Source of the DNA: Escherichia phage VB-EcoM-WM
Sequence record: PQ014731.1
DNA length: 64,000 nt
Reading direction: 5' to 3' (one strand)
A program made the translations under genes and the position numbers. The notes beneath the pieces were generated by a model that was given only the letters and a program-made list of their open reading frames with translations, searched no databases and was not told the origin of the DNA. Of the stretch, positions 33,131-42,358 are shown one piece after another. Position 1 is the stretch's first letter. Each line of letters starts with the position of its first letter.

Positions 33131-34612
33131 TTATTTAGCGTACTCGATCAATTCTACAGTTTTCCCAAAGCTTGGGATATAATTTTTATTATACCCTTCG
33201 GTGAGAACCCATAAAGTATCGTACTTTTTCCACTTGTTGTCAACAGCCTTTTGTTCAAAGTTATGCTCAAAGTATAGGTCGGTCAGGACGATGACATCTT
33301 TTGCATTTGGTATGTTAGCGTCCAGATACTCGAACACGCAAGCGGCTGTTGTTCCCCATGTTGAGTGGACCTCATAGTTGATCATCTCGTCGATGTTCCC
33401 ACGAGTGTATACTTTAACCTCTCCAACCTCGGTTGACCAGCAGAACATCGTAACCTTGAACTCTTTATACAGATTGCACAACCCAGTGATTTCATTGAAC
33501 ATTTTCTTTAAAGTTCTTTGGGAGATCGATCCAGAAACGTCTAGAGCCACCACAATATCTATAGTGTTTTCCGGATTACGTCCAGGAACAACAACGTGCT
33601 GATTCTTGTTTATAGCCCCAACTTTTCGCATTGTGCTGGTCAAAGACCCAGATCGGCGACCGGGTTTTCTATAGGTTAGTTCAGCCTTTCGTTTAGACAG
33701 CATACGTTGTTTAATGATGTCTATATAATTGATTACAGGCTTGCCTCTGTTTTTGACAAGCTCGCGCACAGCCTCAGGGCAACTACCTCCGGAAGCCTGC
33801 ATTGCTGCTTCCAACATGTCACCAGAGTCCTGCATGGCTTGATCTTTATCAGATTGACTGATTACTGGTTGCGGCTGATCATACCCCATAGCCTTTCCAA
33901 GATCATCACTAGTGCCACCGTTTCCGCTCATGTGATCATCGGTTTGTCGTTTATCTCCTTGGGAGTTCTCACCTTTACCGTTCTTACTTTTACCGCTATT
34001 CTGATCTCTTTGTTTATCAAGAACTGCATAGACGTTCTCAGCAATCCATCCATGAAACTTCATGTCGCAGTAGCAACTGGCTAAGAAGCCAAAAGGCTTA
34101 CCTTTTACGAACTCAGTGCTTTTCCCCTTCGGGAAGAAAACACAAGGAGGCTTGCTAAAGTCAACCACAAGACCTGTGTTGATAACGTGATCACAAGCAA
34201 TATTGAACAGTTCCGGCTCAAAGCTTTTACCACGGACCAGATGATCACAGATAATATGCCCCACCTCATGTGACAGAAGGAAGGCCACCTCTTTCACAGA
34301 TTTTGGGGAATAGAAAACCTCAGCCATCTCAAACTGCTTGTCAGTCAGAGATGCTTTAAGAATGGTTTTACGCTCATCTGCCAACCCCATAATGAACTCA
34401 GGGCTGTAGTAGATGCGTTTATGGTCTGTTGCCATAGTGGAGCACCATGTGTGGTTTTCTACGAACTGCAACCCTGACAACAGTGTGCCATAAAACGGCA
34501 GCTTTTCAAGAAGGTACATGCGAGCGGCCTGCAGCATTCGCAAGGCATCATCTTTTTGTGCGGTAATGATTTCTGAACTTCTGCTATCCATTAAAACTCC
34601 AGAAGGGGCCAT
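33131..34612 (-). CDS. vWA-domain protein with N-terminal HExxH metallopeptidase-like domain
   Basis: 493 aa; HEVGH zinc-binding motif and vWA MIDAS motif VVALDVSGSIS. Confidence 0.7.
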   Translation of the reverse strand: MAPSGVLMDSRSSEIITAQKDDALRMLQAARMYLLEKLPFYGTLLSGLQFVENHTWCSTMATDHKRIYYSPEFIMGLADERKTILKASLTDKQFEMAEVFYSPKSVKEVAFLLSHEVGHIICDHLVRGKSFEPELFNIACDHVINTGLVVDFSKPPCVFFPKGKSTEFVKGKPFGFLASCYCDMKFHGWIAENVYAVLDKQRDQNSGKSKNGKGENSQGDKRQTDDHMSGNGGTSDDLGKAMGYDQPQPVISQSDKDQAMQDSGDMLEAAMQASGGSCPEAVRELVKNRGKPVINYIDIIKQRMLSKRKAELTYRKPGRRSGSLTSTMRKVGAINKNQHVVVPGRNPENTIDIVVALDVSGSISQRTLKKMFNEITGLCNLYKEFKVTMFCWSTEVGEVKVYTRGNIDEMINYEVHSTWGTTAACVFEYLDANIPNAKDVIVLTDLYFEHNFEQKAVDNKWKKYDTLWVLTEGYNKNYIPSFGKTVELIEYAK

Positions 34613-34624
34613 TGGCCCCTGTCA

Positions 34625-39878: not shown

Positions 39879-40379
39879 GTGAAAATTAAAATCTTTGCTA
39901 TTATTTTGAGCGCATTTTTATCGCTGCCTGTTGTTGCAGCACCAAAACAAAAAGTATATCACACCTGCAAGCCATCAGATACTAAGGAAAACATTCTAGC
40001 ATGCAATATCTACAGGGAAGCTAGAGGAGATGGCACGATGGGTATGCTGGCATCTGGGTTTGCCACCCTAAACAGGAAATCTCATCCCAAATACCCGGAC
40101 ACTATAAGAAAGATTGTCTACCAACCTAATCAGTTTTCGTGGACAACCTACGGCAAAACTTTTAAGGTGACAGAAAAAGATTCATGGGATCACGCTAAAA
40201 GTCTTGCAAAGATGCTTCTAAAGGTCTATAATAACAACCATGTTGCATACATGGCTATGGATATAACAGGTGGAGCAACACACTACCATACGACCAAAGT
40301 ACGACCGAAATGGGCAAAAAAGATGCAGAGGACAGCTCAATTCGGGAGTCATATCTACTACAAGGAGCGCAATAAATGA
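39879..40379 (+). CDS. SleB-like cell wall hydrolase with N-terminal signal peptide
   Basis: Track ORF 39759 runs through the terminator; GTG at 39879 follows RBS ggag; signal peptide KIKIFAIILSAFLSLPVVAAP; blocks ACNIYREARGDGTMGMLASGFATLNR and YQPNQFSWTT match SleB-type hydrolases. Confidence 0.6.
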   Translation: MKIKIFAIILSAFLSLPVVAAPKQKVYHTCKPSDTKENILACNIYREARGDGTMGMLASGFATLNRKSHPKYPDTIRKIVYQPNQFSWTTYGKTFKVTEKDSWDHAKSLAKMLLKVYNNNHVAYMAMDITGGATHYHTTKVRPKWAKKMQRTAQFGSHIYYKERNK

Positions 40380-42358
40380 TTGTAAACAGTAATGAAACTA
40401 AAGCAGTGCTAACTGGAAATATGGAGGTCACCAGGGGCTCAATTTCTCTGAACAAAGAGACTTTTGGGCTAATCATTAAAGGGATTTACGAAGATAAGGT
40501 GCTGGCAAGCTGCCGTGAACCAATCTTCAATGCTGTGGACTCTCATGTTGAGTCTGGACGGGGTGATGTACCGATCATCATTCACTCTCCTACAGACCTT
40601 GAACCATACTTCTTTGTGCAGGACGTTGGATTAGGCATGTCAGAAGAGATGGTCCGCAACACTTTCATGAACCTCGGAGAGTCAACCAAGCGCAACAGCA
40701 ACGCTCTGGTGGGTAATAAAGGTGTTGGTTCAAAGGCCCCGTTCAGCATGGTGGACACTTTCGATGTGATCAGTGTACACAATGGTGTTGAAAGCACATA
40801 TCTATTGTTCTTGGATCAGGGTATCCCAAACGTTACCAAAATCCGCGAGCGGAAGACCGAAGAGCACAATGGGGTAAAAGTTCAGTTCCATGTTAAGAAA
40901 GAGCATGTTCTGAAATATCGCACTGCTATTGCATCATGCCTACGCTATGCAAAGTTTCCGTTTACCGTTACCGATCCTATGACCAATAAGATGCTGGAAG
41001 GTGACAAGGTTGAGGCGCAGTATCGCTACGAGAAAGATGGTTGGAAAATGACCATCCTAAAGGGCTATACCAGCTCTGACGAGAGTCGCGTGGTAATGGG
41101 TCACCAACCTTACCGTTCTAAGTTCCTGGAGACATTAACAGACTACCCTGCAATCTGTGTAGAGATCCCTATCGGGGATTGCAATATTAACCCTGGGCGC
41201 GAATGGACCATAGAGGGGCACGACGATGGTGGATTCCAAGAGCGGTTGGAGGCTTTTGTCAAAGAGGGTATCCGTCTTCGTGGGGCAGAAGTTGTTGCGG
41301 AATTGGAGACAGCAAAAACATCCTCAGAAGCACGTGAGATGATGAAGAACAGTGGAGTGTTCGGGCACATCTTCGGTAAGAATTTTATGTGGGACCGATG
41401 GGAAGAGACAGGACTAGGAAGTTTGGGAGATTGTGAGATCTTCGCTGGCGGCTTAAATAAAGGCCGCATAGGTTACGCCTGCTACGGAAAGTCGGAGTTC
41501 TTACGAGGGGTCTACTTAGTGTTTAACGACGGAGACGGCAAATATAACCGAAATAAGTGTAACTACTTAAGCGAGATCACCGGACGCAACGTTTTCTATT
41601 GCCGTAACACGGATTTGGTGGAAGAGTTTAAAGAAGCGGCACACCACCCGTTCTTTGCAGATACGGTCAAATTGTTATCAGAGCTTCCTCGCCGACCTGT
41701 GAAGAAAGGTGAAACCAAAACTCGTTACGAGCCAGGCTATTGGGTTAAAAAACTTGAGAAGGATGGTTACTTCCGTCGTGAGCGTATTACTAAGGCAGAG
41801 TTCAGGAAGATTAAGCACTGCATTCCTTATGAGGGTGATATCCAACGTGGAAGTTGTTGGCTGGGACAGCTGAGTAACATCTACCAGCAAAATTATGACC
41901 GTGTGCGTGCGGCACTCCAGATTCCTGAAGGGGAAGATCTGTACCTAGTATCAGAATCTCGTCTGCTTTGGACTGATCCTGATTGCCAGTATGTTACAGA
42001 GAAGAATGTGGAACATTTGTTGAAAGAGGACGCCTGGAAATTCTTACTGACTCGCGCAGCAAATGAAACTTCATATGACAGCCTGTATAGACAATTAGGG
42101 AAAATTATTCCCATGCAAGATTTTGGAAATTATCGGCCACATTTCCACAAGTGGGAAGGTAACACCGCGTGGAAGCACAGTGAGCTAAATCATCGTGCCA
42201 AAATCTTAATCGCCAACCGAGTTAAATGCGGGAAGGCCTATATTGCAAGATTGGAAAAGAAATACCCACTTTTGAAGCATGTAGGCTTGAAATATTGGGA
42301 CACTCCTGCTATGATTGAATACCGTGAACTGATCGATACAAAGAATAACATCAAATAA
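40376..42358 (+). CDS. GHKL-type ATPase domain protein
   Basis: 660 aa; Bergerat-fold motifs N-box REPIFNAVDS, G1 VQDVGLGMS, G2 GNKGVGSKAPF; no TOPRIM or MIDAS motif seen. Confidence 0.55.
   Translation: MIVNSNETKAVLTGNMEVTRGSISLNKETFGLIIKGIYEDKVLASCREPIFNAVDSHVESGRGDVPIIIHSPTDLEPYFFVQDVGLGMSEEMVRNTFMNLGESTKRNSNALVGNKGVGSKAPFSMVDTFDVISVHNGVESTYLLFLDQGIPNVTKIRERKTEEHNGVKVQFHVKKEHVLKYRTAIASCLRYAKFPFTVTDPMTNKMLEGDKVEAQYRYEKDGWKMTILKGYTSSDESRVVMGHQPYRSKFLETLTDYPAICVEIPIGDCNINPGREWTIEGHDDGGFQERLEAFVKEGIRLRGAEVVAELETAKTSSEAREMMKNSGVFGHIFGKNFMWDRWEETGLGSLGDCEIFAGGLNKGRIGYACYGKSEFLRGVYLVFNDGDGKYNRNKCNYLSEITGRNVFYCRNTDLVEEFKEAAHHPFFADTVKLLSELPRRPVKKGETKTRYEPGYWVKKLEKDGYFRRERITKAEFRKIKHCIPYEGDIQRGSCWLGQLSNIYQQNYDRVRAALQIPEGEDLYLVSESRLLWTDPDCQYVTEKNVEHLLKEDAWKFLLTRAANETSYDSLYRQLGKIIPMQDFGNYRPHFHKWEGNTAWKHSELNHRAKILIANRVKCGKAYIARLEKKYPLLKHVGLKYWDTPAMIEYRELIDTKNNIK

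Follow-up and report, generated by a model that had tools for sequence, protein, structure and literature searches.

The region between positions 33,131 and 42,358 of a 64,000-nucleotide (nt) stretch of Escherichia phage VB-EcoM-WM (sequence record PQ014731.1), called here the window, encodes a MoxR-class AAA+ ATPase and, on the opposite strand, a protein in which a putative zincin metallopeptidase domain precedes a vWA domain. A sequence-only reading of the window had gathered these two genes with an open reading frame (ORF) of 126 amino acids (aa), a SleB-like hydrolase, a GHKL-type ATPase and a 401-aa repeat protein, and had suggested that all of them could form a host-takeover or anti-defence module. 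All the ORFs that it listed were recovered at identical coordinates. Nevertheless, our results make it probable that the region is not one system and consists of several independent known modules, located in a dispensable early or accessory region of a Vequintavirus and including a MoxR–vWA pair whose genes have become split. These modules would be (1) the MoxR-class ATPase and the vWA–zincin protein, of the N4 gp24/gp25 type, (2) rIIA–rIIB, (3) the SleB-like hydrolase and (4) an Srd-like anti-sigma gene together with small ORFs. Concerning the pair, an anti-defence role of the ATPase was shown by knock-outs in the related phage Bas54 and that of the peptidase is indicated only by transposon depletion; the metallopeptidase would be the ancestral partner of the ATPase.

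The 10.4 kb from 33131 to 43574 matched over their full length, with 94-96% identity, 110 GenBank phage records. The phage records matching this region were 126 in total, nearly all of them from Escherichia phages of the genus Vequintavirus, and by these matches the source phage is an rV5-like coliphage of the same genus, which comprises myophages with genomes of about 136 kb. The gene order was kept in all the Vequintavirus records matched. An N4-like origin, to which the succession of ATPase, rIIA, rIIB and helicase had at first pointed, was rejected in view of these matches.

The ATPase and its vWA–zincin partner

The ATPase (394 aa; 38254..39438, + strand) likely starts at the ATG at 38254, within the ORF 38248..39438. 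It matched phrog_1297 (E 4e-110), is a homologue of N4 gp24 and is the orthologue of bas54_0063 of phage Bas54 (98.7%). In an alignment of 17 sequences, reaching down to 31% identity, the Walker A motif G37xGK40S, the Walker B residues D108-E109, N146/R147 and R164 were invariant; with all its Walker, sensor and arginine residues conserved in this way, the protein looks catalytically competent. The AlphaFold2 model (pLDDT, predicted local distance difference test, 81; pTM, predicted template modelling score, 0.79) gave as top Foldseek matches in the PDB CbbQ2 (6l1q, E 8.4e-7) and NorQ hexamers, with E values from 8e-7 to 3e-6. Among solved structures, the best match by sequence was midasin, which is dynein-related and of the AAA_5 class. 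Analysis with PADLOC yielded for the ATPase a marginal 15.9-bit match to DpdH, which covered the P-loop only, and no match for eight other proteins.

The partner is encoded in the ORF 33131..34612 (− strand), in which the HEVGH motif reported by the sequence-only reading is present. Its probable start is the ATG at 34591, preceded six bases upstream by GGAG and identical to the GenBank start, which gives a protein of 486 aa (33131..34591, − strand) homologous to N4 gp25. Two Pfam families were found above their cut-offs, namely DUF2201_N (PF13203, putative metallopeptidase; E 1.3e-28, 100.9 bits, cut-off 23.2) and, C-terminal to it, DUF2201 (PF09967, VWA-like; E 2.8e-11, 44.1 bits, cut-off 26.4). 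The resulting layout is an N-terminal HExxH metallopeptidase-like domain, a disordered linker rich in Gly, Ser, Asp and Lys, and a C-terminal vWA domain, and the AlphaFold2 model (pLDDT 85) likewise shows an N-terminal domain made of helices, disorder in the linker at about aa 201-228 and a C-terminal alpha/beta domain. This C-terminal half has the vWA fold, and its structural matches include NorD, while the profile of the protein against the sequences of solved structures gave only marginal matches to integrin I-domains (E 0.057). In 37 sequences, down to 20% identity, the signature of the metal-ion-dependent adhesion site (MIDAS; D351xS353xS355, T414 and D438) was invariant. Around the HExxH motif, H108, H112, N130, D134 and N138 were also invariant and E109 was conserved in at least 90% of the sequences; D134, N130 and N138 are candidates for the third zinc ligand or its support. 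The peptidase, like the ATPase, looks catalytically competent. The family is large, as a DUF2201-type profile collected 24,233 cluster representatives at E<=1e-3, or 5,471 when the threshold was set at E<=1e-30.

Both phrog_1314 and many RefSeq and GenBank records give to this protein and its homologues (for instance in loci L088, 8986-10545, and L169, 3432-4787) the name 'HNH endonuclease'. No HNH domain was found in it with Pfam, and the name looks like a propagated misannotation.

In the window both genes belong to separate transcription units, on opposite strands and with their starts about 3.65 kb apart. The sequence-only reading had nonetheless proposed them as partners, and this was borne out by their equal phyletic spread, their adjacency in nearly all other lineages and the depletion of both on the E. 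coli isolate CFE311 described below. Of 50,697 phage records, 729 matched the vWA-peptidase and 821 the ATPase, and the counts for both proteins ran in parallel across hosts: 216 and 215 records, respectively, for Escherichia, 104 and 108 for Pseudomonas, 58 and 68 for Klebsiella, 33 and 35 for Erwinia, 26 and 26 for Pectobacterium, and 17 and 17 for each of Cronobacter and Achromobacter. The taxa concerned were Vequintavirinae, N4-like Schitoviridae, jumbo phages of the Rak2/GAP32 and PA5oct types and some Bacillus phages, and each gene was carried at >=95% identity by some 117-118 Vequintavirus records.

Gene order was studied in 80 IMG/VR loci recovered by the ATPase alignment. A DUF2201-type gene lay directly 3' of the ATPase gene, on the same strand, in 68 of them, with gaps from −58 to +610 nt. 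Among the 12 loci without partner, ten had less than 110 nt of contig left and only two had room downstream, so that, of the 70 informative loci, 68 had both genes side by side and in one direction. It was also adjacent in metagenomic phage contigs of 150-350 kb, in the jumbo phage GAP32 and in Certrevirus PBES02, which belongs to the same subfamily as the window phage and in which the ATPase (ADU18_0233) is immediately followed by the vWA-peptidase (ADU18_0234). In the N4-species phage PMBT57 a 59-aa ORF stands between the ATPase and the vWA gene. The split divergent arrangement of the window was found again in Seunavirus GAP31, where an Srd-like gene precedes the vWA gene. Because the pair is adjacent and co-directional in nearly all other lineages, including PBES02, the comparison of gene orders indicates that the split across the divergent promoter junction is a derived rearrangement of the Vequintavirus/Seunavirus lineage. 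The ATPase and the vWA-peptidase are, on these comparative grounds, a genuine pair, descended from one ancestral module.

The pair is also present outside phages. In Campylobacterota, 50 of the 68 loci with room downstream had a DUF2201 gene following the ATPase homologue, and in a complete Halarcobacter chromosome the pair was found amid ordinary cellular genes (IclR, glucose dehydrogenase and SfsA), not in a prophage. ATPase homologues without DUF2201 partner occur in Sulfurovum chromosomes (L110, 6559-8948, from Sulfurovum sp. CS9, and 17 similar loci). At L110, the start of the ATPase gene is overlapped by an ORF of 462 aa, which gave no Pfam match and may encode an alternative partner.

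Requirement on a clinical isolate and proposed mechanism

Functional data on the orthologues are contained in a preprint (bioRxiv 10.1101/2025.11.20.689424) describing HIDEN-SEQ, a transposon sequencing study which included Bas54 (phage MaxBurger), a Vequintavirus. We found the proteins of Bas54 to be 90-99% identical to those of the window (97.7% for the vWA-peptidase) and its gene order from the metallopeptidase through the helicase to be identical. On E. coli K-12, all genes from bas54_0055 to bas54_0068 were classified as 'Non-essential', and insertions were obtained, with no fitness cost, at 81 of the 86 TA sites of the metallopeptidase gene and at 60 of the 64 of the ATPase gene, that is, at 94% in each case (bioRxiv 10.1101/2025.11.20.689424). 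On CFE311, an E. coli clinical isolate, the log2 fold change was −7.23 for the ATPase gene bas54_0063, −6.32 for the helicase gene bas54_0068 and −5.48 for bas54_0140, the adjusted P of the three being shown as 0 (<1e-5), and −2.20 for the metallopeptidase gene bas54_0055 (adjusted P 0.009). No significant change was given for the anti-sigma factor (−0.08), the '1-3 fucosyltransferase' (+0.43), the orthologues of the 89-aa and 126-aa ORFs (bas54_0062, +0.24, and bas54_0064, +0.38), the hydrolase (bas54_0065, −0.88), rIIA (−0.01) or rIIB (−0.34), and the orthologues of the five genes that open the rightward unit (bas54_0057 to bas54_0061, the '1-3 fucosyltransferase' included) had no phenotype. 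Since insertions in the genes flanking those of the ATPase and the metallopeptidase were neutral, polar effects do not explain the depletion of these two. In addition, knock-outs of bas54_0063 and of bas54_0140 were sensitive to DS-28, a cloned two-gene candidate defence system (bioRxiv 10.1101/2025.11.20.689424), a name that our literature search found only in this preprint and in one plasmid survey. The preprint does not comment on the depletion of the metallopeptidase. Thus, the anti-defence role suggested by the sequence-only reading has experimental support for the ATPase, whose orthologue is needed against DS-28, but a wider multi-gene system was not supported.

These data also bear on a proposal made by Iyer et al. 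(2021) for the group 2.2 jumbo phages, according to which the pair would be a virion-assembly chaperone with a maturation protease. It concerns an identical domain pair and was made by analogy with the MoxR–vWA couple of the Acidianus two-tailed virus (PMC7824862); furthermore, the GAP32 pair lies directly after three virion structural genes, and MoxR–vWA systems such as NorQD are generally maturation chaperones (PMC13036017). However, structural genes were essential in the Bas54 screen, whereas both genes of the pair tolerated insertions on K-12 as said above. Moreover, the Vequintavirus pair is located in the early region, beside sigma-70-type promoters and replication genes, the N4-like pair stands among genes of nucleotide and DNA metabolism, Bas54 has a separate prohead protease (bas54_0006), the phenotype is host-specific, and the virion proteins that the rV5 paper names in its main text include neither of the two (PMC3606486). 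We consequently regard a role in virion assembly as quite improbable for this pair.

Several observations weigh against a two-protein anti-defence module of the MoxR–vWA type. The Pfam scores of the ATPase itself were all below threshold, with 17.0 bits for AAA_5 (cut-off 22) and 15.7 for bpMoxR (cut-off 27), and AAA_3 did not exceed its curated cut-off. It is a P-loop AAA+ protein, with the MoxR fold as the closest one; as AAA_3 (PF07726) and AAA_5 (PF07728) are carried by homologues at about 34% identity, the family link of the window ATPase is transitive. Similarly, the N-terminal domain of the vWA-peptidase had no match to solved structures among the matches listed, so that the zincin assignment comes from Pfam and the HExxH motif. 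In PMBT57 (L170, 2227-7987) the pair is located about 3 kb upstream of rIIA, and a loose rII linkage hence recurs at least once. As for the screen, its source is a preprint in which one supplementary sheet is mislabelled or duplicated: in Extended Data Table 8 (S6/S7), the sheet resampling_K-12_vs_CFE303 corresponds to run B54_2_311 and its numbers are identical to those of the CFE311 sheet. The depletion of the metallopeptidase, about 4.6-fold, is far weaker than the complete loss of the ATPase, the second anti-DS-28 gene of the preprint is bas54_0140 and not the peptidase, and both genes of the pair lie in different transcription units in the window. Given this weaker depletion and the naming of bas54_0140, the ATPase may act partly or wholly without the vWA partner in Vequintavirus.

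In its strongest form, this last possibility means that after the split the ATPase, alone or with another partner such as bas54_0140, is the anti-DS-28 factor and that the role of the vWA-peptidase is unrelated or vestigial. The disparity in effect sizes, the pairing of the ATPase with bas54_0140 in the preprint, the separate transcription units and the partnerless Sulfurovum homologues are all in its favor. We consider it unlikely, because both genes, in spite of the split, have been kept in Seunavirus and in some 117 genomes of Vequintavirus with intact catalytic and MIDAS residues, because the peptidase was significantly depleted on CFE311 while the neighbours on either side were unaffected, and because pairing is near-universal elsewhere.

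A mechanism can be proposed for the two-protein module, each step of which is taken by analogy from the MoxR–vWA paradigm and especially from the NorQD structures, where a finger of the vWA domain enters the pore of the hexamer and the partner has a linker that is remodelled through the ATPase activity (PMC13036017). The ATPase would assemble as a hexameric ring and would grip the vWA domain of the partner as NorQ does with NorD; the MIDAS site could then bind an acidic residue of a client protein, and ATP-driven remodelling would either expose this client to the tethered HExxH domain or switch that domain on, leading to cleavage of the client, which might be a component of DS-28 or its trigger. 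For this family, the hexamer, the interaction, the peptidase activity and the target are all predictions, which also count against the scheme. Extended to phages in general, the idea is that the pair is an ATP-powered anti-defence protease in which the MIDAS site captures an immune protein, the ring unfolds or dislodges it and the HExxH domain cuts it; we put this forward tentatively, as a possibility that is rather less than even. Metal insertion of the cobaltochelatase (CobS/CobT-like) or NorQD kind was also considered and set aside, in view of the HExxH domain of the partner, of the dispensability of both genes on K-12 and of the host-specific phenotype.

The combination of genes was taken for an undescribed one by the sequence-only reading. 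In fact more than 100 GenBank genomes already carry annotations for all of them, and descriptions of the ATPase–vWA-peptidase pair date from 2009 and 2021, with first functional data on the orthologue now given by the preprint. The present analysis adds that the split genes correspond to one ancestral module, that they are linked to N4 gp24/gp25 and that the published table already implicates the peptidase half. As regards annotation, rIIA and rIIB are the names to be given to the 'GHKL ATPase plus repeat protein', as set out in the following section, and the 'HNH endonuclease' label of the vWA-metallopeptidase is unsupported. From the ancestral partnership it can be hypothesized that the anti-DS-28 activity may depend on both proteins and may involve proteolysis, and this hypothesis reaches the function-unknown gp24/gp25 of N4-like phages and the equivalent pair of jumbo phages. 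If the anti-defence protease idea were true, it would define a new mechanistic class of counter-defence extending from N4-like podophages, via Vequintavirinae, to 350-kb jumbo phages, for a module whose relatives are present in thousands of bacterial genomes, and the HIDEN-SEQ table would already hold the first evidence that both halves are needed.

The other genes and the regulatory sites of the region

The sequence-only reading had described, downstream of the ATPase, a 660-aa GHKL ATPase and a 401-aa repeat protein. Both are real conserved genes and the first has the GHKL domain, but they are rIIA and rIIB; profile searches placed the GHKL protein in the well-characterised rIIA family, a result that speaks against the joint system to which it had been assigned. 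rIIA (40376..42358, + strand) matched phrog_612 (RIIA) with E 1.4e-124 over aa 1-658, in addition to six other RIIA PHROGs and phrog_609, which is labelled RIIB. Its N-terminal GHKL/HATPase_c_3 domain (E 1.8e-8) is a known N-terminal domain of rIIA, GenBank annotates the gene accordingly, and tblastn found 2,642 phage records with homologues, among them T4-like phages with rIIA annotation. rIIB (42369..43574, + strand), which starts 11 nt downstream of rIIA, matched phrog_609 (E 3.7e-61) and four other rIIB PHROGs over aa 132-375, in an rIIB C-terminal domain, and has the same name in GenBank. Its N-terminus (42369-42650) contains two similar segments of about 45 aa, …KTRKEARDRRAELEKKGF… and …ETREEARLFRYGLEDNGK…, which are SPOR-like below threshold (E 0.0036); these two repeats account for the 'repeat protein' impression, and one GenBank record labels rIIB a 'SPOR domain-containing protein'.

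The secreted SleB-like hydrolase was confirmed. This SleB/CwlJ-type cell-wall hydrolase (166 aa; 39879..40379, + strand) matched Hydrolase_2 above the cut-off (E 7e-19, 68.7 bits, cut-off 27) and, from the GTG start at 39879 that is also used in GenBank, begins with the signal-peptide-like sequence MKIKIFAIILSAFLSLPVVAAP. As the SleB equivalog TIGR02869 scored 47 against a cut-off of 236.5, the protein is a member of the domain family and not SleB itself; it is an independent gene whose product is predicted to be secreted. An NCBIfam search of nine proteins of the region gave no match for the other eight. Outside the 33131-42358 segment and adjoining rIIB, a Dda/PIF1-like DNA helicase gene (43574..44944, + strand) was identified by Pfam PIF1 (E 9e-33) and phrog_325. 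Its orthologue is dispensable on K-12 and nearly lost on CFE311, a host-specific requirement that is absent from the main-text discussion of the preprint.

The association of these genes with the pair was studied by comparing ten window proteins, with phmmer, to the ORFs of the 80 IMG/VR loci. The vWA protein was found in 68 loci and the hydrolase in one, and no match was obtained for rIIA, rIIB, the helicase, the 299-aa, 89-aa and 126-aa proteins or the anti-sigma factor; neither rIIA nor rIIB was present within 10 kb of the ATPase in any of these loci. What the window has in common with GAP31 is limited to the pair and the anti-sigma gene, and with PBES02 to the pair alone, with no rIIA, rIIB, hydrolase or 89-aa, 126-aa or 299-aa ORF near the pair in either phage. 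Therefore, when the neighbourhood is compared among relatives, co-conservation with the ATPase is seen for the vWA protein and not for rIIA, rIIB, the hydrolase or the 126-aa ORF. The ORFs of 89 and 126 aa were considered as extra components and rejected, as they are unconserved in GAP31 and PBES02 and their orthologues had no phenotype on CFE311.

All this bears on the idea of a single novel system for host takeover or anti-defence, formed by the whole block of the ATPase, the 126-aa ORF, the hydrolase, the GHKL and repeat proteins and, at a distance, the vWA protein. The genes adjoin, are all dispensable on K-12 and have a constant order in Vequintavirus records, the N4 pair is also placed a few kilobases upstream of rIIA, and rIIA/rIIB are themselves anti-defence proteins against RexAB, as cited in the HIDEN-SEQ preprint (bioRxiv 10.1101/2025.11.20.689424). 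However, with the GHKL and repeat proteins being rIIA and rIIB, with a terminator between them and the ATPase unit, with the block genes missing near the pair in the IMG/VR loci, GAP31 and PBES02, and with rIIA, rIIB, the hydrolase and the 126-aa ORF neutral on CFE311 while the ATPase was wholly lost, a single system is very improbable. Independent modules remain the explanation that we favor.

Upstream of about 28.9 kb, the window contains long plus-strand ORFs corresponding, by synteny with Bas54, to tail-fibre and baseplate genes. From about 29.6 to 35.7 kb there is a leftward block of small genes, and the rightward block starts at 35.76 kb and continues into replication genes. The GenBank order is, leftward, putative metallopeptidase/VWA-like protein and anti-sigma factor and, rightward, 'putative 1-3 fucosyltransferase', five small hypothetical proteins, MoxR ATPase, a hypothetical protein, cell wall hydrolase, rIIA, rIIB and DNA helicase. 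A tRNA scan of the whole 64 kb found no tRNA. Sixteen GenBank records (MG0656xx) labelled 'Campylobacter phage', with C. jejuni as host, are about 94% identical to this Vequintavirus region, and their host label looks doubtful.

The first gene of the leftward unit encodes the Srd-like 'anti-sigma factor' (34625..35614, − strand), supported by phrog_3118, phrog_1400, phrog_4592 and the GenBank annotation; in the rV5 main text, gp11 is described as an Srd homologue (PMC3606486). It adjoins the vWA gene in Seunavirus GAP31 also, and is functionally outside the pair. The rightward unit opens with five genes of unknown function (35757..37940, + strand), namely that of a 299-aa phrog_12338 protein and ORFs ending at 36931, 37300, 37557 and 37940, which have no linkage to the pair beyond the genus. 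The 299-aa protein (35757-36656) is named 'putative alpha 1-3 fucosyltransferase' in GenBank and gave no Pfam or NCBIfam match, only that to phrog_12338, whose function is unknown. They are followed by the 89-aa ORF (37985..38254, + strand; phrog_13164), the stop codon of which overlaps the ATPase start (…TGATG…), so both are probably translationally coupled; no homologue of it was detected upstream of the GAP31 ATPase. The 126-aa ORF of unknown function (39448..39828, + strand; phrog_12370) is the last gene before the terminator.

The back-to-back promoters proposed by the sequence-only reading at 35646..35716 were found exactly as placed. These sigma-70-like sites, each identified by its hexamer pair, are TTGACA-17-TAAGAT with an extended −10 (35674..35646, − strand) and TTGACT-17-TATAGT (35688..35716, + strand). 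Across the region, promoter-like sites were not above chance (25 observed versus 20.4±4.4 expected). The two mentioned fill the sole divergent intergenic gap, and identical sites are annotated as promoters in phage Gotham; the main text on rV5 likewise reports bidirectional promoters located between gene 10 and gene 11, matching this junction (PMC3606486). The top match of the region to the sigma-70 consensus (38031-38059, TTGACA-17-TATTAT, 11/12) is contained in the 89-aa ORF; it precedes the ATPase start by 195 nt and may be an internal promoter of the ATPase. An intrinsic-terminator-like hairpin (39842..39859, + strand; TCCCCGC-TTCG-GCGGGGA followed by a T-run), at a site equivalent to that of an ARNold terminator in Gotham, parts the genes of the 89-aa ORF, the ATPase and the 126-aa ORF from those of the hydrolase, rIIA, rIIB and the helicase. 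Finally, a perfect GC-rich hairpin with a 7-bp stem (34604..34620; AGGGGCC-AAT-GGCCCCT) occupies the 33-nt gap between the Srd-like and vWA-peptidase genes. After it, the coding (−) strand continues with TCTGGAGTTTTAATG instead of a clean T-run, and the hairpin may serve in attenuation or in RNA stability.

Comparison with known systems

The gp24 (AAA ATPase) and gp25 (vWFA) of N4 and related Schitoviridae resemble the pair in the domains, in the ATPase-then-vWA order and in the location among non-structural genes. By tblastn against PMBT57, identity was 27.6% for the ATPase (E 2e-26) and 21.7% for the vWA protein (E 1e-18). The differences are that in N4-like phages the genes are co-directional and either adjacent or separated by one small ORF, in contrast with the 3.65 kb and opposite strands of the window, and that the Vequintavirinae partner is about 100 aa longer than the N4-like vWA protein, through insertions. 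The 2009 N4-related description of gp24/gp25 assigned no function to them. The pair of group 2.2 jumbo phages (Iyer et al., 2021, Viruses 13:63, PMC7824862) also combines a MoxR AAA+ protein with a vWA protein bearing an N-terminal metallopeptidase, and both window proteins had matches in the jumbo phages GAP32, K64-1, phAPEC6 and BF. However, the published proposal is virion assembly and structural-protein processing, whereas the Vequintavirus data point to a dispensable, host-specific anti-defence function.

The pair differs from NorQ/NorD and CbbQ/CbbO, which serve for metal insertion into a dedicated cellular enzyme or for its reactivation and in which the vWA partners lack an HExxH domain. 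In addition, the phage ATPase carries at its C-terminal side about 120 aa of extra helical sequence, and sequence identity is only 15-22%. The ternary conflict systems of Kaur et al. (2020, eLife) are similar in having a MoxR–vWA couple involved in virus–host conflict, but they are host defences that have variable effectors and are defined by a third member, which is VMAP, iSTAND, FtsH or a beta-propeller. Beside the pair, no conserved third gene was detected in the IMG/VR loci, GAP31, PBES02, GAP32 or Halarcobacter, and the bpMoxR profile gave only 15.7 bits, under its cut-off of 27, on the window ATPase.

As to the rII genes, the likeness to T4 consists of the PHROG matches, the rIIA-then-rIIB adjacency and the N-terminal GHKL domain common to T4-like rIIA. 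Nevertheless, only the N-terminal 30-50% of the window rIIA aligns to T4-like rIIA, with about 26-32% identity, and the window rIIB differs from that of T4 by its two N-terminal SPOR-like repeats. Finally, in Bas54 the anti-DS-28 protein bas54_0063 is a direct orthologue (98.7%) of the window ATPase within an identical gene order, with essentially no difference between both phages.

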